Part shown: piece after piece, positions 3,230-45,676 of the stretch
Position numbering within the stretch: position 1 is the stretch's first letter
Layout: the number at the start of each line of letters is the position of its first letter
From: Mobula birostris
Lineage: Eukaryota
Direction: 5' to 3'
NCBI RefSeq assembly: GCF_030028105.1
Contig: NC_092372.1
Location: 90,772,687-90,836,686, forward strand
DNA: 64,000 bases
The notes under the pieces: generated by a model
Database searches by the model: none
What the model was told of the DNA's origin: nothing
The model's input: the letters and a program-made list of their open reading frames with translations, nothing else
Made by a program: the position numbers and the translations under genes

Positions 3230-3460
3230 AACACACATCAAAGTTGCTTGTGAACACAGCAGGCCAGGAGGCATCTCTAGGAAGAGGTACAGTCGACGTT
3301 TCAGGCCGAGACCATTCGTCAGGCCTTTCGTCCTGACAAAGGGTCTCGACCCAAAACATCGACTGTACCTCTTCCTAGAGATGCTGCCTGGCCTGCTGCA
3401 TTCACCAGCAGCTTTGATGTGTGTTGCTTGAATTTCCAGCATCTGCAGAATTCCTTGTGT
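3230..3460 (+). mobile_element. Penelope-like pLTR fold-back element with 13-bp TSD
   Basis: ~95-bp inverted arms. Flanked by TTCTGATTCTTAT at 3217-3229 and 3461-3473. The arm sequence matches the 3' ends of the GIY-YIG elements at 10358-10882 and 29120-30060. Confidence 0.85.
3290..3323 (-). ncRNA. Minimal hammerhead ribozyme motif (Penelope pLTR type)
   Basis: Minus strand reads C-CTGACGA-atggtctcggcct-GAAA-cg-TC-gactg, with intact CUGANGA, GAAA and UH core. Stems I and II are imperfect in this copy. Confidence 0.6.
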
Positions 3461-18770: not shown

Positions 18771-19282
18771 CAGCAGTGTATTGAGCAGTTCAAGGTAAGC
18801 AATAAGAAAAAGCTGAATTACATTTATACAGTGTAGAAAAAGTACAGTGCAGGTCGGCAGTAAAGTGTAAGGTCAAAAAGACATAGAGTGTAAGGTCAAA
18901 AGTCTATCGTACCATACTAAGGAACCACTTAATAACCTTACAACAACAGGACGGAACCTGTCCATGAGCCTGGCGGGACGTGTTTTCAGGCTTTTCTAAC
19001 TTCTGCTCTGTGGGAGGTGGATTCTTTAATTATGCTGCCTCTTTTACTGAGGCTGCGGGAATTATAGACAAGAGTCCACGGACGGGAGGCCGGATTCCAT
19101 GATGTGCTGAACTTTGTCCACAACTCTCAGCAGTTTCATGCAGCCGAGGGCAGAGCAGTTGCCACATAAAGCTGTGATACATCCCGATAGAGTGCTTTCT
19201 CTGGTACATTGATAAAAATTGCTGAGGGTCAAAGGGGGCATGCCAAACTCTTTTCAGCCTCCTGAAGAAGTAGAGACACAGG
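18771..19282 (-). mobile_element. Rex1/Babar-type LINE remnant, target of the Gypsy insertion
   Basis: Minus frame 'LYFFRRLKR'. Sequence resumes after the Gypsy at ~23784. Confidence 0.7.
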
Positions 19283-19510
19283 TGTGGTAAATCATATGTA
19301 TGTTGTAACTGGGTTAACTGTCTGGACACGCCCCTCTGCTGACTGCCCCTGTGGCTCCTCCCACAGAGTCCTATATAAAGGTGTTTCACCTTGCTCCTCC
19401 CCCTCAGTCCGGGGGCAGACACTCACCGTAGAGGTCGTATTGTACAGCGAATAAAAGCCTTTCAGTATTTTACCTAACCTCAGTCTTTTGGAGTTATTGA
19501 AGGAGCTTCA
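19283..19510 (+). repeat. 5' LTR
   Basis: TGTGGTAA...GCTTCA. TATA-like TATATAAAG at ~19372; AATAAA at 19450-19455. Confidence 0.95.
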
Positions 19511-19536
19511 ATTTTATTCGCTGTACATTTTAAAGC

Positions 19537-20254
19537 ATGGAACATGTACTGAGACCCGACAAATTAGACCTCAATCCGCAAACGCCAGAATCTGGAAACG
19601 CTTTCGAACTCTGGCTGGCCTGCTTCGAAGCGTACCTAGAGGAGATTAAAGCAACCGACCCCGTAGCGAAGCTCAGAGTTCTACTCTCCAGGGTCAGTCC
19701 ACGGGTCTATTCGCTGATCAGAGACCAGCCGAGCTACGACGGTGCAATAAGCGCCCTCAAAGGCCAATACCTGCGGCCGATAAACAGCGTCTATGCTTGG
19801 CACTGCTTAGGACAAGGCAACAACAGCCCGGGAAATTGAGTGCTGAGTTCGTCCAGGCCCTACGGACGCTCGTGCGAGCCTGTAATTGCCAGGAGCTGAC
19901 GGCGGCGCAGCATGCAGAGCTTCTAGTGAGAGACGCCTTGGTCACGGGTGCCAGCGGCTGTTAGAAAAAGCCGATCTTACCCTAAGTTCGGCGATCGAGC
20001 TGGCCGACAAGCTGGAGGCCACTCTGCATAACTCTGAGGCTCTCCAGGCACGCGATCCCCCGATGGCCTCGTGGGCGCCACAGACCCCGCAACCCGCCGG
20101 CGAATCGACCTCAGCTGCCGCCAGTTGCGAGTCCACGAACTGCTACTTCTGCAGACTGGAGAAGCACCCCCGGAAACGCTGCCCGGCCCGAGAAGCTACC
20201 TGCTCCAGCTGCGGAAAGAAGGGCCACTTCGCCAAAGTCTGTAAGTCAAAAAAC
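19537..20254 (+). pseudogene. gag: Gypsy gag, frameshifted, two zinc knuckles
   Basis: ORF 19537-19839 'MEHVLRPDKLDLNPQ...'; ORF 19886-20521 contains CYFCRLEKHPRKRC and CSSCGKKGHFAKVC. Confidence 0.85.
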
Positions 20255-20273
20255 CGCGAGCGGGATCAAGCAG

Positions 20274-20425
20274 CACCGCGTGCAAAACATGGGAGTCACC
20301 ATCTTGCCTGCCGCCATCTTCCCTGCATGCCGCCACCACGTGCAAGACATGGGGGCCGCCATCTTCCCTGCCGCCATCTTCCCTGCACGCCGCCACCACG
20401 TGCGAGACATGGGGGTGACCATCTT
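20274..20425 (+). repeat. 60-bp tandem repeat (~2.5 copies) between gag and protease
   Basis: TGCAAAACAT, TGCAAGACAT and TGCGAGACAT at 20281, 20341 and 20401. Confidence 0.9.
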
Positions 20426-20430
20426 GGTCG

Positions 20431-22538
20431 GTGCCACCTCCCACCGCCTACGACCAACAGGTGCTCATGGGACACCCCACCGCACCGGACCAAGACAGCG
20501 ACCCCATCCTGGCTTCCGTGACCCTCGACCAAAGCGCTCCCCACCAGCTTACAAGGTCAATGATGGACATCCTGGTGGAGGGGCACAGGACAATCTGCCT
20601 GTTTGACATAGGCAGCACGGAGAGTTTTATCCACCCGGACACGGTGCAGCATTGTGGACTCGCGATACGACCAGCAAGTCAGGGGGTCACCATGGCTTCC
20701 AGGTCACATACAACAGACATCCGGGGGGTCGGGGGGGAGCGGGGTTGTGTAGCGGCGCTAGTGGTGCAGGGCACAGAATACAGAGAGTTTACGTTACTGA
20801 TTATGCCTCAACTGTGTGCCCCTGTTCTATTGGGGCTCGACTTCCAGAGCCACCTGAAGAGCGTGACAATGAAGTATGATGGGTCCCTCCCACCAATTAC
20901 TGTCGTAAATCCCCAGTTTTGTAGGGATACGTCACGTACCCCGCTACTAGTCGTGGACTATAGCCAGAACATCAATAGGTTCACGCAGCTCGATGCGTAC
21001 CCTTCTACCCCACATCATGGATATGGTCAATCAGATAGCACAGTACAAGGTGTACTCGACCATAGACCTAAAATCCGCTTACCATCAGCTCCCCATCTGC
21101 CGGGAGGACCGCCCTTACACCGCCTTCGAGGCAGATGGCAGGCTTTATCAATTCCTGCGCGCCCCCTTCGGTGTCACAAATGGTGTATTTGTCTTCCAGA
21201 GGGAAGTGGACCGGATGGTGGACCAGTGCCAACTGAAGGCCAGCCGCACATCCCACCCAACACCATGCCAACTACCGCACTACTGACGTCACTTGCGGCC
21301 TCTCCACCCTCAGGATCTCTCCCCTACCGCTGTTCGCCAACCTGACCCCTGACTGTAAACCTGTGGCAACTAAAAGCAGGAGGTACAGCGCGAGGGACAG
21401 AGCTTTCATTAAGTCAGAGGTGCAGCGGCTGCTCAGGGAGGGGGTCATTGAGACAAGCACAAGTCCTTGGAGGGCGCAGGTGGTCGTTGTTCGGAACGGG
21501 GAGAAGAATAGGATGGTCGTGGACCAGTGCCAACTGAAGGCCACGCTCCCATATCTGGATAACATCACCATCTGCGGTCACGACCAGCAGGATCACGACA
21601 ACAACCTCCCAAAATTTCTCCAAGCGGCCAAAGCTTTCAATCTCACATATGACAAGGACAAATGTGTATCCGGGACCACCCGACTTGCTATCCTTGGGTG
21701 TGGCGTGGAGAACGGAGTCATTGGCCCTGACCCCGACCGTATGCTCCCTCTTCCCAACACACTCGGAGCCCTCAAAATGTGCCTGGGTTTCTTTTCATAT
21801 TACGCCCAATGGGTCTCTAACTACGCAGACAAGGCCTGCCCCCTGGTCAAGTCCACCACATTCCCCCTCTCTGCTGAGGCCTGCGCGGCCTTCAACCGCA
21901 TAAAAGGGGATATTGCCAAAGTAGCAATGCATGCGGTGGATGAGGCCATTCCCTTCCAAGTAGAGAGTGACGCCTCCGACTTTGCGCTGGCTGCTACTCT
22001 CAACCAGGCAGGAAGACTGGTGGCGTTCTTCTCCCGTACCCTTCAAAGCCCTGAAATTCGGCACTCCGCGGTGGTGAAAGAGGCCCAGGTCATAGTGGGA
22101 GCTATTAGGCACTGGAGGCACTATCTCGCCGGCAAAAGGTTCACCCTGCTAACTGACCAGCACTCAGTCGCATTCACGTTTAATAACCAACAGCGGGGCA
22201 AAATCAAAAACGATAAAATTCTGAGTTGGAGAATCGAACTCTCCACCTACAACTATGACATCATGTACAGGCCTGGGAAGCTCAATGAGCCCTCCGATGC
22301 CCTATCCCGGGGAACATGTGCCAGCGCACAGATCGACCGGCTATACGCCCTACATGTAGATCCTTGCCACCCTGGGATCACTCGGCTTTTCCACTTCGTG
22401 AAAGCCTGGAACCTGTCTTACTCCCTTGAGGAGATCAGGACAATGGCCAGGGACTGCCAAGTCTGTGCAGAGTGCAAACCGCACTTCTACCGACCCGAAA
22501 AAGCACAACTAATCAAGGCCACCCGCCCCTTTGAGTGA
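20431..22538 (+). pseudogene. pol: Gypsy pol: protease, permuted RT, RNase H
   Basis: Protease 'LFDIGSTESF'; RT 'STIDLKSAYHQL...PFGVTNG' and 'PYLDNITI'; RNase H 'VESDASDFAL'; start of integrase HHCC 'LH...CHPG...CQVC'. Confidence 0.9.
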
Positions 22539-23480
22539 GTGAGTGTTGACTGTAAGGGCCTCCTTCCCTCCACCGACCGCAATGTGTACTTTCTTAACGT
22601 TATCGACGAGTACTCGCGGTTCCCCTTTGCCATCCCCTGCCCCGACACCACTACCACGTCAGTTATAAAAGCCCTGCGCAAGCTCTTCACTCTGTTCGGA
22701 TACCCATGCTATATCCACAATGACAGAGGGTCCTCGTTTATGAGTGACGAGCTGCGCCAATACCTGCTGACTAGGGGAATTGCAACTAGTAGGACCACGA
22801 GCTATAATCCCCGGGGGAATGGACAGGCGGAGAATGAGAATGGCACAGTGTGGAAAGCCACACTCTTAGCCCTCAGGTCAAAGGGACTGCTGGTCTCCCG
22901 CTGGCAGGAGGTCCTTCCCGAGGCACTCCACTCCATCCGCTCCCTGTTATGCACGGCCACCAATGCCACCCCTCATGAGCGGCTCTTTTCTTTTCCCAGA
23001 AAATCGACCACTGGAACCACCCTACCAACTTGGCTGACATCCCCGGGGCCAGTGCTGCTCCGGAAACATGCGAGGAGTAATAAATACTCCCCGATGGTCG
23101 AGAGGGTTCACTTACTTCATGCAAACCCTCAGTATGCCGATGAGGTTTTACCTGATGGGCGGGAGGACACGGTCTCCATCCGCGACCTAGCGCCCGCAGG
23201 AGCACCAGGCCCCTACCCTGAACACTCCGTGGTGACTATTAACCCCGTACCCACCGATGTATGTACCCATGGGACACCGAGCACTCCAAACCCTACACAG
23301 ACACCACACGACACTCCCATACCGGGCGCAATGCACACGCACGAGGGATTACCGACACCTAGCGTGCTGGCACCTCAAGTCAGGCCAGAGCCAGCACAAC
23401 CGCCACCGCCGATGCAATCACCACTGGTGCTACGTAGATCACAGCAACAGACTCGACCACCTGATAGGCTTAACGTGTAA
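22539..23480 (+). pseudogene. Gypsy integrase core
   Basis: 'VIDEYSRFPFA...HNDRGSSF...NPRGNGQAENENG'. Separated from upstream pol by one in-frame TGA at 22536-22538. Confidence 0.9.
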
Positions 23481-23531
23481 ATATACTTGTTGTAAATATT
23501 GTCAGTCACTTCACCCCGCGGGACTCTTTTT

Positions 23532-23548
23532 AAAAAAGGAGGGGTGAA
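23532..23548 (+). promoter_or_regulatory. Polypurine tract
   Basis: AAAAAAGGAGGGGTGAA directly before the 3' LTR. Confidence 0.85.
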
Positions 23549-23778
23549 TGTGGTAAACCATATATATACGTTGTGACTGGGTTAACTGTCTGGACACGCC
23601 CCTCTGCTGACTGCCCCTGTGGCTCCTCCCACAGAGTCCTGTATAAAGGTGTTTCACCTTGCCCCTCCCCCTCAGTCCAGGGGCAGACACTCACTGTGGA
23701 GGTCGCATTGTACAGCGAATAAAAGCCTTTCAGTATTTTACCAAACCTCAGTCTTTTGGAGTTATTGAAGGTGCTTCA
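23549..23778 (+). repeat. 3' LTR
   Basis: Direct repeat of 19283-19510. Confidence 0.95.
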
Positions 23779-23899
23779 ACAGGTGAGCTTTTATGACCAT
23801 AGAGACAATATGTTTGGATCAAGGCAAGCTAGACGCTCAGTTGGTAAATCAAATGTGCTGAGCATTTTATTATTCATTTTGTTGTAAAAACCTGTCCCC

Positions 23900-24615: not shown

Positions 24616-25795
24616 TGCGTCCATGAGAAATCATTGCATCCATACTGTGAAGTTGCTCTTGCAAAATGCAAACAAATAAACTCTGGCAAAGTACAGAATG
24701 ATGTCATTAGGGATAAAATGATCATCCTACCTTCTCTTTTTGTGAGAATTTGCTGATTATATTATGACTGTTAGATTTGAGTGTCTGCTAATCAAAAAGA
24801 TAGTGGGTCAAAATTTGTTTGCTTAAGACAACACAACTTGCTCAAATGGAATGAACTAGTCATTTAGTTTTCTTTCATGCAACTGAACTTTTAAAATTTT
24901 GTCTTGAACTATTTTGTTCATTCAACTGTGGAAGATGTACTAATGAGCAAATGTTTGATATTTGACTTTGTTGCCCACTGAGTGGTGTCCGATTCACCGG
25001 CCCGGTTGTGGATTGACATTACTATCATAGTCTGGAGACTGATTTTAATGGATGCTGCAGCGGCACTGCAACTGAAATCCAAGAAGCTGGTAAAGCATTC
25101 AACTACACTGAAACAGCTGAAAGGAAACTGGTGGTCTGGCTCGAATATTGCACAAGCACCAGCACTAATCCCATTGACCAACACAGTTCCCAATCTTCCC
25201 CCATCTCCCTTTCTGTCAGGACCTATCTAATGTCCTATTAAATGTTAACATGGGAAACACACGATATTTAATCTGGCCAGAACAGGTAGGTCTGCTGCTG
25301 AACAATCGATGGAACTACCTAATAATTGCATTAGACAGATCTTGGGTATCAATGGAATAGTGAAGATGCTCCCCTCCATATCCACTCCTTAACTTTGCTC
25401 ATTCTGATTGTCAGGCAACGATGCAGGAACTGGTAAATTAAAGTTGCTTCCACGTTCTTTGTTTCAGTTACTAGCTCCACTGCTGCAATGCAGAGTCCAA
25501 AATGTTACTGTGTATAGAATCAATTTCTGCTGCTCTCTAATTTGAATGTCTATGCCCCCTCATTGTAACCCTTCAATTACTGGAAGTGATCTCCACTTGA
25601 ATCAGTCAAATTAATCATTTTAAAAGGCTCCTTTAAGTTACAGGGTATAACCAGCTAATGGGTGGGTTCCATTTTTGCAGAAACCCTTTAGTTAATTTAG
25701 TCCATGTATCATAAAATACACTAACAAATGCACTCAATGTCATAAACATACCTCCACATTATAGTAACGAAAGGTATCTAAAACACAGAAGACAT

Positions 25796-26303
25796 GAGAA
25801 GGGGAGGGGGGATGGGGGGTGGAGAGGAGAGGGGGAGAGGGTGGGGGAGAGGGGGAGAGGGAGAGAGGGTAGGAGGGATGGGTGGACAGAGGGGGCGAGT
25901 GGAGAAGGGGAGGGAGAAGGGGTGAGGAGAGAGGGAGAGAGAGTGGGATGGGAAAGGGAGAGGGCGAGAAGGAGGAGGGAGAGGGAGGGAGAGGGGGAGG
26001 GGAAGGGGGAGAGGGAGAAAGGGTAATGGGGAGGGGAGAGGGAGAGTGGCGAGGGGGATAGGGATAGAGGGGGAGGGGGTAGAGGGGGATAGGGGTGAGG
26101 GAGGGGAGAAGGGAGGGGGAGGGGGAGAGGAGAGGGGGAGAGGAAAGGGGGAGAAGGGAACAGGGGGAAAGAGGAGGGGGAAAGGAGAGAGGGGAGCAGA
26201 GGGGAGAGGGAGTGGTGGGGGGGAGTGGGAGGGTGAGAGGGGGGAGGGGTAGAGGGGAAAGGGGAGGGGGGAAAGGGGGAGGCGGAGGGGGAGAGGGAGG
26301 AAA
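25796..26303. repeat. ~500-bp G/A-rich low-complexity tract
   Basis: Near-pure purine on the + strand with many G3-G6 runs. Confidence 0.95.
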
Positions 26304-28189
26304 CTAATTCTGAATTAGTCCAAACAAATGATTGTACACATGTCAGACTTCTGAATTTCTTGTTTGCACGTACATGTGTCTGTAAATCAGGTGTTTGTAG
26401 GCCTGGGACAAACTGTACAATGTACAAAGTATGACCAGAGATGGCAAGTGAAATTAAAGCCCAAAACAATGAAGATTTTGCATCAAACTAGCACAGAAAA
26501 TGGCCATGAGATATCGACAATAAACAGTGAAAACTGCAAAAGAACTGTTGTAACCTGGATTTTCCACCTCTGACATGCATTGAGCATTAGGGCAGCCACT
26601 GTTGTTACTTGTTAAGGGAAATAACAAAGACAGAGCTACCAAAAAATCATACTTCTTATTATTTTTTATGATATACTGTAGGACATCACTTCAGTCCATT
26701 GAGTCTTTGTTGACTCACAGAGCATTAATTTTTCTTTCTCAGTTAATTTTCCCTGTAACCTTTTCTCCCTAAATCCCCATGAACTCCTTTCAAATTTTAT
26801 CGATCATCTACACAACAGGAGCAATTTGCAACAGCCAACAAGCCACACGAGTGTGGAAAGTAGGAGGAAACTGCAGCGTCTGGGGTAAACCCAGTCTGAG
26901 TTTGGGTCGGCCCAGTCAGTCATTCTATAACCACTGAGCTCTTTGCTAAAACTTGTGCACTCTCAGCTGATGCAGCACCAACAAATGACTTGATGGAAGT
27001 GACCACACTACATCCTCTGTTGCAAGCATCACACCTCCCACCTTGCCTCAGGATTCCTGAAATGGTTCAGCAATTGTTCCGATAATTCTGGTAAGCTGCT
27101 TGTTTCATACCTTTCAAACAGATTCTTCCTTTGAACTGCATTCTGCCAAGGACTGTGAGGATTTCTGATGCTCTGTGAATACTAAAATTCTGCTCAAACA
27201 CGCTATGATGATCAGTCTGTTTGCAATAGTCTGTCATTCACACATGGGACATAATGCTTTGTTTTATCTTATTGGTTCCCAAGATGCTGTGCTCCTCAAC
27301 TTTGCCTTTCTAAGGGCTCTGAAGATGGGACCACAATGTAACCTTCGACTATTATCTCATTACCACTGCACTATAGTGTTTACTTTACTGGCTGTCCATA
27401 GTGAACAGGTAAGGTGGGTCTTGCTGGTGGCCACTGGAACAATTAACACTGCAAATCCTTAACAGCTTTTTATAGTTTCAAGAAATGTATTTTGTGTTAA
27501 TATTAACAGCCCACCTCAGGGAATATCACATCTCCATTCACCCCTCAATTTATTTCACTTTGATCTTTATCTCTTCTATCGCACCCTCTTGCTACATTCT
27601 CTTCGGAATAAAAATATTGTAAGCATAGGCCCAGCTGTAACGTTTCTCCTCCTAGGAAGGTCTTACATTGAGACACTAAGCTCATCTTTACCGCAGGCTC
27701 CCGATTCCCCTCCTGGTGAATATCATGAAACAGCGTGTGCAATGATGCCAGAGAGCCATCACCTGTGCTTTCACTAGTACGCCTGCTCTCATCAAGTGAG
27801 CTACCAGTCTCATTTTCTCATCCGGAGTTATGCCATTTCTTTCCTTCGCAAGTATTGAAAGAATGGCCATTGATTACTCATTTTATGCTGTTGAATCTTA
27901 TTCCTCCAAAGGACATCAACTGACAGGTCAAACCAAGGTTTAGTACAATTTAGTTTTTAATACTCAAGTTATTTAAGCGCACATGATTACCACTGTCTAT
28001 TAACAACTTCACATTGAATTGACCATTCCAAATTGTCACTTCTTATATTAAATTACAAGAGTCACAATTTGAACTTTAAAAAGCAGCATCCATCACTAAG
28101 GCCCACCATCACCCAGGAATGCCCAAGGACGTACAGGAGCCTGAAGGCACACACTCAACGATTTAGGAACAGCTTCTTTCCCCTGCCAT

Positions 28190-28241: not shown

Positions 28242-29119
28242 ACATAGTTTACTGCTTTTATGATGATGCACTACAATAAATCTTATGCGAATGATATTAG
28301 AACTAATTCTGGTTCTGAAAGACTACCCGTTTGAGTTAAGAGTAGCCACATTCACTCCATCAGGTAGTCTTCTCTGACTTCCAAACCCAAGGTCTATCTT
28401 TTTGCGATGGTTTTTCTTCCTTTGTCACTACAAATGTCTCAGACAGCTTTTTTTTCATATGAATTTTCTTCCAATCATTTTCAGGCTTTGTTTGTTCTTA
28501 CTCCCGTCCTGGAGCTAGTTCATGGTTCAGAATTCAATTATTCATGTTGCCATTCATCCGAGGACTGAACAAAGTCTGTTTCCTTTCCTCTTTTCCATTC
28601 TTATCCAGTAGTCAAACCATTTTGCTTGGATCCTCTCATTTTCTGTCCCACCCCAAATAAATTACTTCACAAAAGCTGTTCTAAAAAGGTGTAAGAATTA
28701 CATCAAGTAGCCTGTGTCTTTTGGTCCATTAACTAGATCCTTGGGCTGTACAGCTAAACTGCAACTTCCAAAGTTCTCAGAAAGCACTGAGTTCTCATTA
28801 AAATCTCAACAATATGTCTTGGGACTCTCCACCAGCTGCAATATCTCTGTTCTGTGACCATTCCTCTGAACTCAGTAACATTGTTTTCAATCAGGAATAT
28901 CAACAATCATTTCACATACAAAGTGAAACTAGGCAGAATAGTTTGGCACAGGCGAGTAGGGCCAAAGGGATCATTTCTTTGCTGTAGTGCTTTATGACTC
29001 TATGATTCTAAAATAAATGTCAGAACCGTCCTGGATTTCCTACACTCACTGACCTAGTACTGTCATTAGTGTTGATTGATGAAAAGAATCTCCTCCTCCA
29101 TCTCCTCATGCATAATTCT

Positions 29120-30060
29120 TCCACTTTCAACAGTAAGCGCACTCTACACAACTCCCTTGTCCATTTGTCCCTTCCCACTGATGTCCCTCCGGGTATTTAT
29201 CCTTGCAAGTGGAACAAGTTCCACACTTGCCCCTACACCTCCTCCCTCACTACCATCCAGGGCCCCAAACAGTCCTTCCAGGTGAGGCAACACTTCACTT
29301 GTGAGTCTGTTGGGGTTATCTACTGTATCCAGTACTCCCAGTGTGGCCTCCTGTATATTGGTGAGACCCGATGTAGATTGGGAAACCACTTCAACAAGAA
29401 CTGCCAGAAAAAGCAGAATCTTCCGGTGGCCACCCATTTCAATTCTACTTCCCATTCCCATTCAGACATATCAGTCCATGGCTTCCCATACTGCCGTGAT
29501 GAGGCCACACTCAGGTTGGAGAGACAGCACCTTATATTCCGTCTGGGTTGCCTACAAACTGATGGCATGAACATCGATTTCTCAAACTTACAGTAATACC
29601 ACACCCACTTTCACTTCCCATCCCCTTTTCACTTTCTCACCTTATATCCTTACCTCCCCAACCCCTTTTCACTCTCACCTTATCTCCTTACCTGCCCATC
29701 ACCTCTCCCTGAAGCTCCTCCAACTTCCCTTTCCTCCATGGTCTTCTAACCTCTCCTATTAGATTTTCCCTTCTTTCTCTTTAGTTCTTTATCTCTTTCA
29801 CCAATCAGCTTCCCAGCTCTCTACTTCTCCCCTCCCCCTCTCATGGTTTCACCTGTCACCTACCACCCTGAACTTCATCACCGCCCCTCCACCTTCTTGC
29901 TCTAACCTCATCTTTTTTTTTTTGAGGCCTAATAAATGGCTTCGGCCCAAAATGCAAACAATTTACTCTTTTCCATAGGTGCTGCCTGGCCTGCTGAGTT
30001 CCTCCAGCATTTTGTGTGCATTGCTTGGATTTCCAGCACCTGTGGATTTTCTCATCTTTG
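29120..30060 (+). mobile_element. Penelope-like element: GIY-YIG endonuclease and 3' pLTR
   Basis: ORF 29069-29596 'FTCESVGVIYCIQYSQCGLLYIGET...PVATHFN...LQTDGMN'. Followed by a pyrimidine tract and pLTR end GCTGCCTGGCCTGCTGAGTTCCTCCAGCATTTTGTGTG. Confidence 0.9.
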
Positions 30061-30425: not shown

Positions 30426-30628
30426 AAGACGAGGAATTCTGCAGATGCAGGAATTTCAAGCAACACACATAAAAATTGCTGGTGAACGCAGCAGGCCAGC
30501 CAGCATCTCTAGGAAGAGGTGCAGTCGACGTTTCGGGCTGAGACCCTTCGCCTGAAACGTCGACTGTACCGCTTCCTAGAGATGCTGCCTGGCCTGCTGC
30601 GTTCACCAGCAACTTTTATGTGTGTTGC
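30426..30628 (-). mobile_element. Penelope-like pLTR fold-back element with TSD
   Basis: Near-perfect arms GCAACACACATAAAA.TTGCTGGTGAACGCAGCAGGCCAG / CTGGCCTGCTGCGTTCACCAGCAACTTTTATGTGTGTTGC. Flanking ATGTTCTCA(C)TCCA at 30414 and 30629. Confidence 0.85.
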
Positions 30629-30796
30629 ATGTTCTCACTCCAGTTTAATTGCAGCGCAGTTTACAGATTGCTTATTCAGCCCTTGTTCCTGGCACCTGAG
30701 GCTTACTGAAAGGATTGAAAGCTAGCAAAGACAGCCAAGGTCATAGTTCAACAAGAAGTGTGGGGTGGAGGGGGGGGGGTAACTCACAGACCATAG

Positions 30797-37969: not shown

Positions 37970-39786
37970 GTTAGATACACAGTATACTATATAGTACAAC
38001 TATGAATATAGATATCCACAGCATAGTAAATTTTAAATTGTTCCATTCAAGCCTAAAGACTTAATCACTGTGGAGTATTTCTTAATCTTTTGGGATAATG
38101 TCTTTCCTTATTGGAGGGGGCAATGCTTGCTAGGTGAGACTTGTGGCTGTGAAACAATCTCTCAGGTTCTGGGCATCTTCCGTGATGGTTGTAGGAGTTG
38201 ACTCTGAGACTGCAAGAAGTGGTTCTGACAGATCCATTTCTGACAGGTGTCCCTGGCCACCTTTCTTCTCTAATAGTTGACTCTGCTCTTCTCAACTGAT
38301 TAATGTGTCACGCCAGATGACATCAGATGCAGTCTCCACTGTGTAGGAGACTAGTCCAGTTCTGTCCATAACCTTGCCAAATACTCACTTTTGATCACCT
38401 CTGTAGTCCCTTGCCAGGACTGCTTGTCCAGGAGTGAAACATTGAACCTCCTTGTTTGAGGAACCATCAATATGTCTCACCTACTTGTCCTGCATACTCC
38501 TTCTGACATTGGGTTTGAGGAGATCCAAGTATGAACGGAAGGGACAACCCAGGAATAGCATAGTTGGTGAGTTGTTGGTTGTGGAGTGTCTACATTGCGA
38601 TATGCAAAGAGGAAACTAGTTAGTTTTTGATTCCGTGTTCGAGTAGTGTGTTCTGCTGACATTGCATGCAATGCATCCTTTAGACTCCAGACAAAACTTT
38701 CTGCCAAGCCATTTGTGGCTGGGTGGTACAGTACAGACGTAATAAGTATGTCTTAATCCATTCATTTTCAGGAATGAATGAAACTGATCTGCAGCAAAAT
38801 AGGGTTCATTGTCATGAAGTGTACTGGAACACCAGACATTGACAGAGTCTTCTCAACACATCAACAGTATGTGAGGCTGCAGTGGAGGCTGTTGGGCACT
38901 TCTGGCCATTTTGTAGCTTCATCCACGACTATTGAGAAATTTGTGCCCTGAATGGCTAATAAAATCCACATGAATCCTCTGCCAGAGTTGAAACAGTGTG
39001 GGGTCTTTTCTGGTTTCCTTTGGATCATCTCTACCATAATAGCGAGACTTTTGATTTGTATTAGGTAGAATATGTCAAGAGGAGAGTCCTCTTTTCTAAA
39101 TGTTTCAGGTATTTCCTTTTCCAACTGGTCAATGGGACAATCTACCAGCAGTTCCATGATTACTTGTCTGATTGAATTCAATCTTGTAATTGTGTCTCCA
39201 AGAGATAGAGCCCATCTCTGTAATGGTTCTGCTGCATGTGTAATACTCTTCTATGGATTCAAAAATAGACAGCAAAAATGGTTGATAATCAATATTGAGG
39301 GTAAACTCTCTCCTGTTCAAGTACTAGTTGAAACGTTTCATACCCCAAACCATACTCGAGGCCTTTATGTCAATCTGTGAATGATTTCTGTCTGCAGTGG
39401 TAAACGAACGTAATGCAAAGGCAATGGGGCATTCACTTCCATCACTCATAACATGTGACATGACTGCACCTAGACCACAAGGAGAGGCATTGCTGGCTTG
39501 TTTCACTGGTTGATGTGAATAATAATGTGTGAATACAATGTGTGACCTTTTGAAAGCCACCGCACATTGCTTTGTCCTTTTCCATTTCTTCCTGATCTTT
39601 AGGAGTGAGTTCAAGGAGTGGAGCACAGTAGTCAGGTTTGGCAGGAACCTGTTATAATAATTGACAAATACTATAAAGAACCACAACTGTGACACATCCT
39701 TTGGCATTGGGGCATCCACCACTGCTTGAATTTTCTCAGCACACTTGTGTAATTCTTGTGCATCAGTGCTGTGATCACAGTAGGTG

Positions 39787-41028
39787 TGTCATGGTCCAGA
39801 TTGGGGTCCCTTTAAATTTACCTTGTTTATATTACGATCCGGACCGTTGATTCCCTGTTTTCCCGTGTCCCTTGACTTTGGTGATTAGAGGCAATTAACG
39901 CTCGGCTGAACCGGTAGTTTATAATCTCCGGCTTTCAGCTGTTCGGCGCGGGAGCGTCTGCAAAGTCACCAAGGTGCAGCGTGCCAATGTCATCTGGCCA
40001 GAGCAAACCTAGTCTCCGCCCGAAGCGAGTGCCGGTAATTCATCCTTCCTTACCGGAGCTACCCTGTCAAGTTACCCCGCTAAAGTGAGCCTGCAAAGTT
40101 TCCTCACCGAGATGGGTCCGTCAGTTAGTCTGCCGGAGGGAATCAAGAACCGCTGTCTACTGTTCCCGGGCCGAATCGAGAGCTCACCACCTCCCAGAAG
40201 CACCAAGTCAAGTCCTGGCTCTGGCAGCATTCAAGCACCAAGTCAAGTACTGTCCCTGGCGGCTTCCCAGTTCTGAGTCAAGTCCTGTCCCTGGCGGTCT
40301 GTGATTCCTGTCCTACCCCCTTGTCTGAATCCCTTCTCTGCCCCTCTCACCTCTAGACCTCGTCTGCAGCCCCTGCCTGCACTTCGGTCTAGTTCCATCG
40401 CCGGAGCTAGATAGGTACTGTCTGGTGTTCACTCATGTTGGTCTTGTCTTGTCTTGTCCTCACCTCCGTGGGGTAAGTCTGGCCATCTCGTCATTGCCCT
40501 GCAGGGAGTCATGTCTTGTCTTGTCCTGGCCTCTTCTCCGTGGGGTAAGTCAGGCCGTCTTGCCGTTACCCCGCAGAGGGTCATGAGTTCCGGCCCTATG
40601 TCCTGTACCCAAGGAGGGGCCCCGGCTCTCTGTTCTGTGTATGTGTCCATAGTTCCATGTACCTGCTCTCCCGAGACCGAGGCTCTGTTTTCCATGTTCC
40701 TCCTCTCCCGAGTCCATGTCATGTCCATGCCTGGTTCTGGGGTCCGAGCTCGAAGCAAGACCCAGGTACTGGGTCCTTGCTCAGTCTCGGGCTCAGAGTC
40801 CATACCCTAGCCTCTTCATGTCTCCTCTAGTTCTGGGAGCCGATTCTGAGTCCTAGCCCAGACCCTTGGTCCCAGCCTAGTCATAGTCCTGAGTCCTTTT
40901 CCTGCTCACTATTCCTGCTTCTGTCTTGCTCTCCTGGTATCGTACAATAAACTAAACCTAAGTAACCTCACAAAATGTGTTTTGCATTTGGGTCCACCCT
41001 TGCTCCCAAAGTCTCTGCCATTGTGAAA
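39787..41028 (+). mobile_element. Solo LTR, 1242 bp, nested in Gypsy RT
   Basis: TGTCA...TG(A)AA termini. 5-bp TSD AGGTG at 39782-39786 and 41029-41033. AATAAA at 40946. The host RT motif PSITYC is restored when this is removed. Confidence 0.9.
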
Positions 41029-42705
41029 AGGTGATGCTTGGTTAAAGAATTCATACCTCTTGCATCATTCTCTGAGCCCATAATCTTCTAATCTTTTTAA
41101 CACTGTCTTGATTTTTTGGAGATATGCCTTGTCATCCTCACTGGTAACAATGCCATCCAGATAACACTGAGATCTTGGCAGACTTGCATCGCTTCCTGCC
41201 CAAGTGTAGGTGCAGATGTTACTCCAAAACTTTTGGACTTTTCTTCCAGCTCCATCTATAGGTAGACCTCAACCAAGTCCACTTTGCTAAAGTGCTTACC
41301 TCCAGAAAGGTTTGCAAAGGTATCAATTATCCTAGGCAGAGAGTATTGATCTACATTCAGGAGTGGGTTAAAATGACCACAAATCCTGATGGATCAATCT
41401 TTCTTGGCTGCTGGAACCACTGACATTATACATGGGCTCCACTCAAACCTGGAATTAAAACATTTAGCCGCCATGCAATCTAGCTCAGCTGACAATGTTC
41501 TCATGCATGGTATAAGGAACTGGGTGGGTTTTGTAAAACATAGGTGTGGCATTTTCATTTAACACTATTTTATCCTTGACATGTCTGTGTTTTCCATTTC
41601 CATCCCCGAACACTGCTGTGGCATCATCCTGTACCTTTTTTAATTTGCTTTCAGCTGAATCTATTGCAGGGGTCATGGCATGCAAGTGGTGGATGGATCT
41701 CCAGTCAAGTTGTAGTCGTCTCAGTCAATCACAGTCCCACAATGCTAGTCCTGCAGTTTTCACCACATACAAGCCCAATGTGCTTTGTTGTTATATTTTG
41801 CTTTTATGAATGGCGTTCCCACAGGAGTGATCATTTCTCCAGTATAATTTCTTAGTTGAATATCTGCAGGAAAATGCCATTCAAACTCATTTTGTGGAAT
41901 GACTGAAACAGCCGAGCCAATGTCCTGTTCACTTCTGGTGTAAGCTATATCACTTGTCTATTGCTAATTTTCACATTGTTACTCACAAGGCTACAAAGTC
42001 CTGTTTCATTCTCATTATTGTCAGATTTTCCATCAACTGCATGCAGATTAGTGCTCTTTTTTAAAACACCAACTTGAGTTTTTCTTTTTCTCTTCCCTGT
42101 GCAGTCATTTATTGCTCTTTGTATGTGTCCTACTTTGTTGCAGTTTCTGCAAGTTACGCCCTTAAACATACTTTGGTCTGGTGTATGTAAGCCCTTGGCA
42201 CAACTGTAACACAATTTGTTAGACCAGACTGGTTTCTACTTAGATGTTGCAATTTTGTTCATGCTCAACTTCATCCCTGACTGCAACTCTATTGCGTCTC
42301 TGTCTTCTGTTTCCATTGATACAATTTCAACTGCTCTTTTACATGAGAGTTGTGTTTCAGTTGGGAGTCATTTTTGAATGCTTTCTTGTAAGTTTCCACA
42401 AACCAAATTATCTCTCAGTGCATCCTTAAGTCTATCACTGAACTGACAATGCTTGGACAATTTCTTCAGTCCAGCCATGTAAGATAAAATAGACTCACAT
42501 TCCTTTTGATCCTGCTTATGAAACCAAAAGCTTTCTGCAGTTAACAATAGTTTCGGTTCTAAATATGCCTGTATTACATTCACAATATCAGCAAAGCTAA
42601 TTTTGGCTGTTTTTTTGGAGCAATTAAACTTTTAAGCAAACTGCATGTTTTTCCATATGCTTCACTCGGCATAATTGGCACATTTCTTATCTGCTATTCC
42701 ATTTG

Positions 42706-43470
42706 TTCTTACGAGGATGTAATCGAGCTGTTTCCTGTAGATGGAGGCTCTGTTTTCATATGTCCACAGTTTACCAGCTTGCTTCTTGAATTGTGTGTTG
42801 GTGGCAATGAGACTGTGTTCCTGGATAAAATCAACTAGATATTGTCCACTTCTGTTGGTAAAGTCTTGGTAAGAGTATGGAACATCTTCCACTCTGACCT
42901 GGGCATTAAAATCACCGAGCACAGCCAGGAAGTTATGTGCCGGTATTGAAGTGACAGCTTTGTGAAGTTTACTGTAGAAGGCCTCCACCTCCTTCTCCTC
43001 GCTGCAGTTGTGCGGGGAGTAACAGATGATGACAGAGGTCGCCGGGTTTCCATCGAATTCCGCAGTAGGGATTCTGTCACTGACTGAGACTACGCTCCTT
43101 AGTGCCTCCTTCACCTTGCAGTTCAACATCAGCCCTACTCCACCTTGTGCTGACATCGTCGTCGACTCTCTCCATGCAGACGAGGTGATGAGGTGCATCC
43201 CCTCTACCTCTGTGAACCTTATCTCTTCGTCAGGGTGTACATGACGGTGTTCTTGGATCCCCAGGATGGAGATCTCGTAGCTGCTTGCCTGTGATGCCAA
43301 CTCTGTGCATCGAGGCAAGGGGTGGATGGTGTTTGCGTTGAAGGTTGAGATGATCGTTTTTATCTTACAGAGCAAAAGAGGCGCAGTTTGCTCAGTCCCC
43401 TTGTCGGACTCAACCCTCCCCGTGGGGTTTGAGATTGCATCTTCATACTGCCTGTCTAGGCCAGGGTCTG
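42706..43470 (-). pseudogene. Inverted AP-endonuclease segment of the RTE LINE
   Basis: ORF 42662-43492 'ISTFNANT...ILGIQEHR...GGVGLML...VLGDFNAQV...QLDYILVR'. Confidence 0.92.
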
Positions 43471-45676
43471 GGCGTAATTGTGTGATCAACACAGAAGCCT
43501 ACAGAACCTTCAGCTCGGTCAGTCCTGACCACAGACTAGGGTCAATGCAAGTGAGACTGAGCCTGTGGCAACCCAAAGCCACAGGTCCCAAGGAGAAGAT
43601 AGACTGGAAGGCATTCTCCTCACAACCTATTCTTCAAGCCCAGTACACAGTGGAGGTGAGAAATCGCTTCGGCCCACTGGAAAGGGGGGGAGGAAGAGAC
43701 TGCCACTAACCGCTATCAACGGCTCATAGATGCACACACAGATGCAACAAAGAGTTTGTTTACTGTGAAGCGAAACAAGAAGAGTCGGATCTCGAAACAT
43801 CCTGACGTTGTCGCAGCAAGAAGTGTGGTCAATGCTTGTCATGCCGAATTTAGAAGGACCGAAACAGAAGAGCTAAGAGACAAGTTTAAGACAGCAAAGA
43901 AGAATCTCTTTGCCACCTATGACCGACTGAAGGAAAAGGAACTAGCTGAGAGGATTAGAGAGATAGAAGCCGCTAATGAAGACATGCAGCATGGAGAAGC
44001 ATGGCACCTAGTCAGTGAGATCAGTAGATGGAAGAAGTCCCCATCAGGTCAAATAAGTGGTAAAACAGCAGAGGACCACGTCCTGACATGGTTTACCCAC
44101 TTGAAGAACCTGCTGGGAAGCCCTCCAACGATCACGGAAGAAGAAGAGGACATACTCACGATACTAACGCAAGTTGACATCAATGACGCCCATTCACCAT
44201 TGAAGAACTGAAGGCGGCAAAATATGCACTCAAACAGGGCAGGGGTGCTGGACCAGATGGAATACCACCAGATGTCCTGAAGAACTGCGACTTGGATGAC
44301 ATCTTGCTGGACATATGTAATACGGCGCTGATAAAAGGCGACAAACCAGAACAGTGGTCACTCTCAAGCGTTACTCCAGTCCCCAAGTCTGGATCCCTCA
44401 CAAAGACAGATAACTACATGGTATCAGCTTGACCTGCATCTTAGCAAAGTTATACAATCGGATGATCCTGAACAGGATTCGCACTGCCATTGACCCTAAG
44501 CTAAGATTCAATCAGAATGGTTTTTGGCAGAAGCATACAACGGTAATGCAAATACTTGCTCTCCGTATGATCATCGAGGAAGTCAAGAAGAACAACCTAC
44601 CAGCCGTGCTTACTTACATCGGTTTTTGCAAAGCTTTTGACTCCATTTACCGAGGTAAAATGCTGAAGATCCTGAAAGTTTACGTAGTGCCAGACCACCT
44701 ACTGAGAGCAATAGAGTCCAGCTATAGCAAAACCATAGCGAAAGTCATATCACCAGACGGAGAAACAGCAGTGTTCGAGCTCCTAGCTGGTGTGCTGCAA
44801 GGAGACACTCTGGCACCCTACATCTTTATAATTGTCCTTGATTACGCTCTGCGACAAGCTACCAAAGATCATGACAAGCTTGGTTTTACCATAAAACCAG
44901 GGCGAACCAAAAGGGTCAGACCAGTTACACTCACAGATCTCGATTTTGCAGATGACATAGTCCTGCCCTCTGACCAGGCGGAGGAAGCACAGCAGTTACT
45001 GACAAAAGTGGAAATAGAATGCAATAAAGTTGGACTTCACCTGAACGCTAAAAAGACAGAGTACATGGTGTTCAACTGTGACAAAGGTACGCTCAAAACC
45101 GTAGAGAATGATACCATTAAGAATGTCTTTGACTACAAGTACCTCGGGTCAAGAATGATGAGTTCAGAGAAGGACATAAAGATACGGAAGGTGCTGGTGT
45201 GGAGGGCTATGAACGACATGAAGGAACTCTGGAAGTCCAACCTGACCGGAGGGCTTAAAAAGAGGATTTTCAAAGCAGTCATAGAGTCCATTCTCACGTA
45301 CGGATGCGAGACGTGGACACTCAGCAAGATGATGTGAAAGTCTCTAGGTGGTTGCTATACACGAATACTCTGGATGGCTCTTGATGTGAGTTGGCAACAG
45401 CACATGACAAACGTCGAGCTCTATAACAACCTACTGATTCTCACCACTAAAATCGAGGCCAGAAGACTGCAACTAGCGGGGCACTGTCTACGCCACCCCG
45501 AGCTACCTGCCAGCTTAGTCATCATATGGGAGCCCAAGCATGGGAGGATGAACCCTGGGCGCCCTCCCAAGACTATGGTCAACACGCTCCTAGAAGACAG
45601 CGGCGTGGCTAATGTAGATGAACTGAACACACTGATGAGGGAGAGGGAGAGGTGGAGAGTCTGTCATTGTGCCTAA
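43471..45676 (+). pseudogene. RTE ORF: APE C-terminus and RT, frameshifted
   Basis: 'RNCVINTEAY...SPDHRL'; ORF 44429-45337 'NQNGF...KAFDSI...GVLQGDTLAP...DFADDI...YKYLGS...YGCETWTL'. Confidence 0.92.

Follow-up and report, generated by a model that had tools for sequence, protein, structure and literature searches.

A candidate self-priming leader, complementary to its own LTR, in an animal Gypsy clade without a recognisable chromodomain

Background

Self-priming, in which a piece of an element's own RNA serves as primer, is usually taken in Gypsy elements as a mark of the Tf1/sushi chromoviruses. Repbase is said to note self-priming for some animal Gypsy families. In the retrovirus HIV-1 the 5' AAUAAA is held in a hairpin. 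Self-priming has been shown in Tf1 and proposed for Tj1, sushi and Tcn1 in the accessible text of two studies (PMC4600332, PMC6317226), and the parts available of this and related work name Tf1 and Tf2 of Schizosaccharomyces pombe, Tj1, Tosmo1-3 and Tcry1 as self-primed Ty3/gypsy chromoviruses (PMC7175516, PMC4600332, bioRxiv 2022.12.06.519325). According to the same partial texts, the first 11 bases of Tf1 pair with the element's primer binding site (PBS), with RNase H cleavage falling between bases 11 and 12 (PMC7175516), the cut lying within a three-duplex 'pretzel' (bioRxiv 2022.12.06.519325). The accessible text of a survey of plant elements predicts self-priming for 12% of them, the Copia TAR lineage included, and because this lineage is predicted to self-prime outside the chromoviruses, self-priming would have arisen more than once (PMC6317226). 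In the literature that we searched, with Repbase and most subscription papers lying outside the search, there was no description of self-priming in a chromodomain-less animal Gypsy clade.

Results

The element and its setting

The window, that is, the whole stretch of DNA that was analysed, is 64,000 nt of Mobula birostris NC_092372.1, and the Ty3/Gypsy element occupies 19283-23778 within it (Table 1). Its two LTRs, both TG..CA, differ by 11 substitutions and one 2-bp indel (~5%). Pfam matches follow the Gypsy order of zinc knuckle, protease, reverse transcriptase (RT), RNase H, then integrase core; the RT is closest to Ty3 among solved structures, and the closest named proteins are those of Mobula, Hypanus and Narcine. 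The copy is decayed, which the earlier note on this DNA had not remarked on: gag and RT both carry frameshifts, there are two in-frame stops, and one RT segment is displaced. This segment (~20947-21244) lies ahead of the protease-RT linker and the start of RT (21237-21560), has short shared sequences at its joints and looks like a template-switch rearrangement. The spacer between gag and protease (20274-20453) is made up of three tandem 60-bp units, whose number varies in ray relatives (P0122, P0123).

Table 1. Features of the element, in positions of the window
Feature	Position	Strand	Basis
Target-site duplication, left copy	19278..19282	.	ACAGG, 5 bp, both flanks
5' LTR, 228 bp, TG..CA	19283..19510	+	LTR comparison
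TATA-like box	19372..19379	+	Sequence; predicted start near 19404
Putative self-primer arm, AATAAA at 19450-19455	19441..19456	+	Exact reverse complement of 19512-19527; covariation across families
Predicted R/U5 stem-loop, adjoining inferred cut site 19456/19457	19457..19506	+	Partition function; RCC..GGY stem across families
Spacer A, 1 nt, between LTR-terminal CA and PBS	19511	+	A in 19/19 alignment rows, 20/20 families
PBS-position sequence, complementary to own LTR, not TGG-type	19512..19527	+	Sequence
Decayed gag-pol: capsid, zinc knuckles, protease, RT, RNase H, integrase	19537..23480	+	Pfam, ORFs
Polypurine tract, 4 nt before 3' LTR	23532..23544	+	Sequence
3' LTR, 230 bp, with second copy of the arm (23709-23724); its AATAAA (23718-23723) mostly open by prediction	23549..23778	+	LTR comparison, folding
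Target-site duplication, right copy	23779..23783	.	ACAGG

Elsewhere in the window a LINE-like element at 42662-45337, labelled by eye, has an endonuclease-like ORF on the minus strand (42662-43498) and RT-like ORFs on the plus strand (43660-45337), and an internal inversion is possible. Also recognised by eye were a fragment of a different Gypsy RT/RNase H at 39324-39788 on the minus strand, which we take to be Mag-like, and an ORF at 29012-29596 resembling a GIY-YIG endonuclease, presumably that of Penelope-type elements. Short palindromic repeats of one dispersed family, with 50-95-bp arms and short spacers, lie at 3230-3425, 30457-30631 and 1075-1231, and a purine-only (G/A) low-complexity tract of ~550 bp lies at 25740-26310.

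A leader antisense to the LTR

The sequence TGTACAGCGAATAAAA occurs at 19441 and 23709 only, and its exact reverse complement is found only at 19512, after the 1-nt spacer A19511. The stretch 19441-19456, referred to here as the arm, holds the only AATAAA of the LTR and is identical in both LTRs. The earlier note had reported a 16-nt antisense pair (19441-19456 and 19512-19527), a motif present in both LTRs with a partner at the 5' copy alone, and the lack of a TGG-type PBS after the 5' LTR. Its coordinates are exact and the other two statements agree with the sequence: no TGG stands directly after the 5' LTR, and the tRNA-type PBS of tRNA-primed Gypsy clades is absent in the window copy. ARAGORN found no tRNA. 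Among 19,782 random 30-mers of the window the longest exact antisense match to the LTR was 12 nt, against 16 observed.

Ray sister copies

Sister copies were represented by unphased contig pieces on 19283-19642: two DNA runs contributed ~3000 apiece, and a small third run that is possibly RNA contributed 161. Among the substitutions listed (40 of 44, at a threshold of 8%), none falls at 19431-19474 or 19512-19526, while 12 sites lie at 19317-19430 and four in later U5. The outermost base of the PBS, 19527, is G in 11-17% of sister depth, and a G-U pair is kept. A loss of complementarity in sister copies, which the earlier note had named as evidence against its reading, is not what is seen in these pieces, the outermost pair being the only one touched by a listed substitution. 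For a 1-nt loss at 19526 the figures are ~2% (DNA runs) and 21% (small third run). The TATA-like box varies among sister copies, 19373 differing in >99% of depth and 19374 in 17-42%. LTR sequence is far commoner than internal sequence in these pieces.

Clade membership

Named relatives with 47-65% integrase identity include those of Nematostella, Trichinella, spiders, Diaphorina, Macrobrachium and Biomphalaria. Five full-length relatives are single ORFs of 1213-1246 aa, and the LTRs of the clade are short (~150-230 bp). The absence of a chromodomain from the integrase, as read from the window by the earlier note, is borne out at the Pfam level: there was no match at E<=0.1 in eight of eight related proteins, five of them full-length, and none at E<=0.01 in the window integrase ORF. 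Because no chromodomain was matched in these eight proteins, the clade is not a typical Tf1/sushi chromovirus.

The Cigr-1 clade, with members in Ciona, molluscs and annelids, has a 245-bp LTR, one ORF of ~1210 aa and a Mag-like gag. As a lead, the clade of the window element may be Cigr-1-like. A literature search for the clade name 'Selfy' gave no match. Cigr-1 is listed as a Ty3/Gypsy clade in PMC6238403 and PMC8556966, and a motif search of the searchable supplementary files of both found nothing.

Comparison across related families

A gag pattern scan of metagenome contigs gave 76 loci, of which 72 were kept and four with <100 nt upstream left out; scans of viral contigs found no relative. 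At each locus the sequence two bases after a CA was compared with the locus's own upstream DNA, and a score of 10 was set as the threshold for a duplex. Fifty-five of the 72 loci score at least 10 and 17 fall below. Under a fixed anchor, 48 of 6000 trials with shuffled LTRs came up to 10. Clustering at 80% gag identity gave 22 families, each represented by its best-scoring member, and in 19 of them there is a duplex of 12-20 nt in the same register. The three failing families are L001, in which the upstream DNA is not its LTR, L067, which is 5'-truncated, and L075, which is degenerate. When ten two-LTR loci were inspected, the CA anchor was the LTR end wherever the 3' copy was readable. The related families have no other PBS candidate after the LTR end, and their PBS begins 15-53 nt before the gag ATG.

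In L018, one of the loci left out, 12 leader bases are complementary to the contig end inside the 3' LTR. Within positions 1-92 of this locus the PBS-like 12-mer does not seem to stand two bases after a CA, and upstream there is a stretch starting with TGG. Positions 1-118 of L001 are unrelated to its own 3' LTR. Either locus could represent a variant leader. Loci L002, L017, L033 and L046 have, 1.4-2.6 kb upstream of gag, an RT/RNase H that belongs to the same clade; these are apparently head-to-tail elements with a common LTR.

With the window included, 20 families can be compared position by position. Positions 1-12 of the duplex are Watson-Crick paired in 19-20 of them, position 13 in 18, position 14 in 16, position 15 in 15 and position 16 in eight, and position 17 in five of 19; all four pair types occur at position 12. 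The register is fixed in all 20 families, with CA, then A, then the PBS, and with an arm that ends in A. The 3' end of the arm points toward U5 and pairs with the base two after the CA, which is the geometry of a primer. HIV-1 and its tRNA have the same register, the primer pairing from base two after the CA.

To assess covariation, 19 of the 20 families were aligned with MAFFT from sequence alone, L004 being left out as it lies at a contig edge. In this alignment 94.1% of 304 cells are paired, a percentage that is inflated, with a bias toward the result, by the picking of arms for maximal complementarity; the two-sided changes found in 15 of the 16 pairs are stronger evidence. The covariation score of 0.604 was reached by none of 500 shuffles, and in slid registers only 29-48% of cells are paired. 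RNAalifold, unprompted, returned the same helix with 13 of the 16 pairs. On the gag tree, in which seven of 17 inner branches are unsupported, there are ~49 pair changes at positions 2-13. Eighteen of 20 PBSs pair best, or tied for best, with the LTR of their own family, the window scoring 16 against 9 for the best foreign LTR; 63 of 380 cross-family PBS-LTR pairs also score at least 10, because the motif is common to the families. The earlier note had proposed a search for compensatory changes among family members, and these are evidently present. On comparative grounds, the pairing is a trait of the clade, and its duplex is kept through compensatory change.

The Tf1 primer is reportedly not removed. 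If the primer were retained here as well, the PBS could be recopied from the arm, and part of the covariation could then come from this copying rather than from selection. Such recopying would itself require self-priming.

Two explanations that do without self-priming bear directly on these comparisons. The first is that the duplex arose by chance or through a one-off inverted duplication in the window copy, which is after all decayed and internally rearranged. Given a null maximum of 12 nt, pairing kept in sister copies and in 19 of 22 families, and the covariation, this origin is refuted and its probability is practically nil. The second is that the PBS matches an internal fragment of a tRNA, or another host small RNA, with the LTR match being secondary. 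Half-tRNA priming is known in Ty1/copia lineages, and in the accessible text of PMC6317226 it is found only there. The PBS studied here changes between families, always together with its own LTR, and an Rfam search of 19250-19600 gave no match above chance, so that we regard this explanation as very improbable.

Predicted folding and the poly(A) signal

Folding of 19400-19545 predicts one long hairpin (z -4.07, 0 of 200 shuffles), in which an R/U5 stem is stacked on the 16-bp duplex. In the partition function, positions 3-15 of the duplex have pair probabilities of at least 0.98 and position 16 has 0.61; for the two A-U pairs at the junction they are only 0.13 and 0.55, and alternative registers compete. 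The U5 stem, which the earlier note had not mentioned, joins 19457-19466 with 19496-19506 at predicted pair probabilities of at least 0.94. This second stem (RCC..GGY) begins at the first base after the arm. Its summed score over the 20 families is 191 against a null mean of 134 (0 of 2000 shuffles; other offsets 133-167), a signal that is weak per family, single families being mostly not significant. The structures seen are thus the central duplex and one stem at the inferred cut; no conserved third duplex was seen.

Fifteen of the 20 families have AATAAA or ATTAAA within the arm, and in one more it runs across the arm end. In the window the 5' hexamer is predicted to be paired (unpaired probability at most 0.01) and that of the 3' LTR to be mostly open, four of its six bases having an unpaired probability of at least 0.94. 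Because the arm ends on the hexamer in most families and the 3' copy has no partner, the 5' signal is predicted to be hidden and the 3' copy open. The earlier note had suggested that the fold-back might mask the 5' poly(A) signal, and this part of its proposal stands only partly: the predicted folding agrees with it, but because four of the 20 families have the duplex yet no canonical hexamer (AATAAA/ATTAAA) at that place, masking, plausible as it is in the modelled structure, looks secondary and is probably a side benefit. The families in which the duplex is kept though the arm has neither hexamer are L020/L022, L046, L057 and L034, and they offer natural tests in which priming and poly(A) masking can be told apart.

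It could be argued that the duplex is mainly regulatory, serving to hide the 5' poly(A) signal or to control translation or packaging, and that priming falls to an unrecognised host RNA. A hexamer in or across the arm end in 16 of 20 families, its predicted pairing at the 5' copy and openness at the 3' copy, and the short distance between PBS and gag ATG would all suit such a role. However, the hexamer-less families keep the duplex, masking needs no register fixed one base after the CA, there is no other PBS candidate after the LTR end, and each PBS tracks its own LTR. We therefore consider a mainly regulatory duplex quite unlikely.

Discussion

It is likely, judging from the sequences compared, that Tf1-like self-priming with a piece of the element's own RNA operates in a broad animal Gypsy clade. 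The earlier note had put forward self-priming from the window, and comparison now supports it well through the duplex in 19 of 22 families, the compensatory changes, the fixed register and the lack of a tRNA-type PBS. On the model of Tf1, the genomic RNA would fold at its 5' end so that 19441-19456 pairs with 19512-19527, and the second stem, 19457-19506, would stack on this duplex. The element's own RNase H would cut at or near 19456/19457, just after the poly(A) hexamer, and the new 3'-terminal A would prime the copying of A19511 and U5. The resulting strong-stop DNA would hold U5 together with R downstream of the hexamer as far as the poly(A) site, and this homology would let the first strand transfer reach the 3' R.

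A different source of the same primer has also to be considered. The PBS might be primed by the arm of the 3' LTR, on the same or a co-packaged RNA, or in trans by a short sense RNA from another copy, and not by a 5' fold-back. The arm is identical in both LTRs, and pairing runs 1-5 nt or more past the conserved A at position 11, which is a candidate start; the bases past that position would in every case be present in the 3' copy, and the sister contig pieces contain far more LTR than internal sequence. Against this, folding in cis is predicted with near-unit probability for most pairs, the second stem adjoins the inferred cut as it would in an intramolecular substrate, and a cut of the 3' copy would presumably remove the R acceptor of the same RNA. 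On balance we think priming by the 3' arm or in trans unlikely, and favour the 5' fold-back.

The position of the transcription start matters for how closely the element resembles Tf1. The only TATA-like box suggests a start at ~19404, which would place it ~37 nt upstream of the arm, unlike Tf1, in which the primer is the 5' end of the RNA; in the invertebrate families no TATA recurs at a shared distance. The likeness to Tf1 would be complete if transcription began within 19439-19446. One candidate Initiator is the conserved T-run-N-AG at arm positions 16-10, which would give a primer of Tf1 length (11-12 nt) and a start at A19446. Against this reading, position 12 is a pyrimidine in only 11 of 20 families and pairing goes on to position 15 in 15 of 20. 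The same motif was rejected as a splice acceptor: a G precedes the AG in four of 20 families, three families have no AG, and pairing crosses the would-be junction. The earlier note had held that a start downstream of 19456 would refute self-priming; this is too strict, as such a start would still leave the arm of the 3' LTR as a possible primer.

A more far-reaching scenario can be offered tentatively, and we think it rather less than an even bet. A chromodomain-less, animal-wide Gypsy clade may have invented self-priming independently of Tf1/sushi by turning its poly(A) signal into a primer. One duplex would silence the 5' AAUAAA, and the cut after the hexamer would both free the primer and leave exactly the stretch from hexamer to poly(A) site as transfer homology.

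If a large chromodomain-less animal clade does share the logic of Tf1, the trait either evolved anew or goes back further than supposed. Self-primed elements would not be reachable via the PBS by 3' tRNA fragments, and would be under-called by LTR finders that depend on a tRNA PBS. The duplex, short and strongly covarying, also provides a precise, testable prediction of a cut site in a vertebrate. The findings bear, too, on whether hairpin priming preceded tRNA priming, a question raised in the accessible text of PMC3601003.

When set beside the Tf1 group, as far as the accessible sources describe it, the clade has in common a PBS complementary to its own 5' LTR, the lack of a tRNA site, the Ty3/gypsy domain order and a further stem beside the inferred cut. 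It differs in its animal hosts, rays among them, and in having no chromodomain match. Its duplex is 12-20 bp long, compared with 11 bp in Tf1, and its arm ends on the poly(A) hexamer. In the Tf1 pretzel, in the text available, both extra duplexes use sequence adjacent to the PBS, whereas the second stem of the clade is a local hairpin in most families. The Tf1 primer is the 5' end of the RNA, whereas the arm of the clade is only a candidate 5' end. As in HIV-1, the 5' AAUAAA is predicted to lie in a helix and the 3' copy to be open; in HIV-1, however, each R copy has a local hairpin and the primer is a tRNA, while here the partner is the PBS, outside the LTR. With the fish Tf1/sushi group and the Tcn1 clade, as covered in the accessible text of PMC6317226, our clade would share predicted self-priming in Gypsy elements, vertebrates included. 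Those are chromoviruses; the present clade shows a single ORF (~1213-1246 aa), LTRs of ~150-230 bp and no chromodomain match. Like the TAR lineage (Houba, Osr-1), for which the same partial text predicts self-priming (PMC6317226), it would be a case outside the typical chromoviruses, but that lineage is Ty1/copia and belongs to plants.
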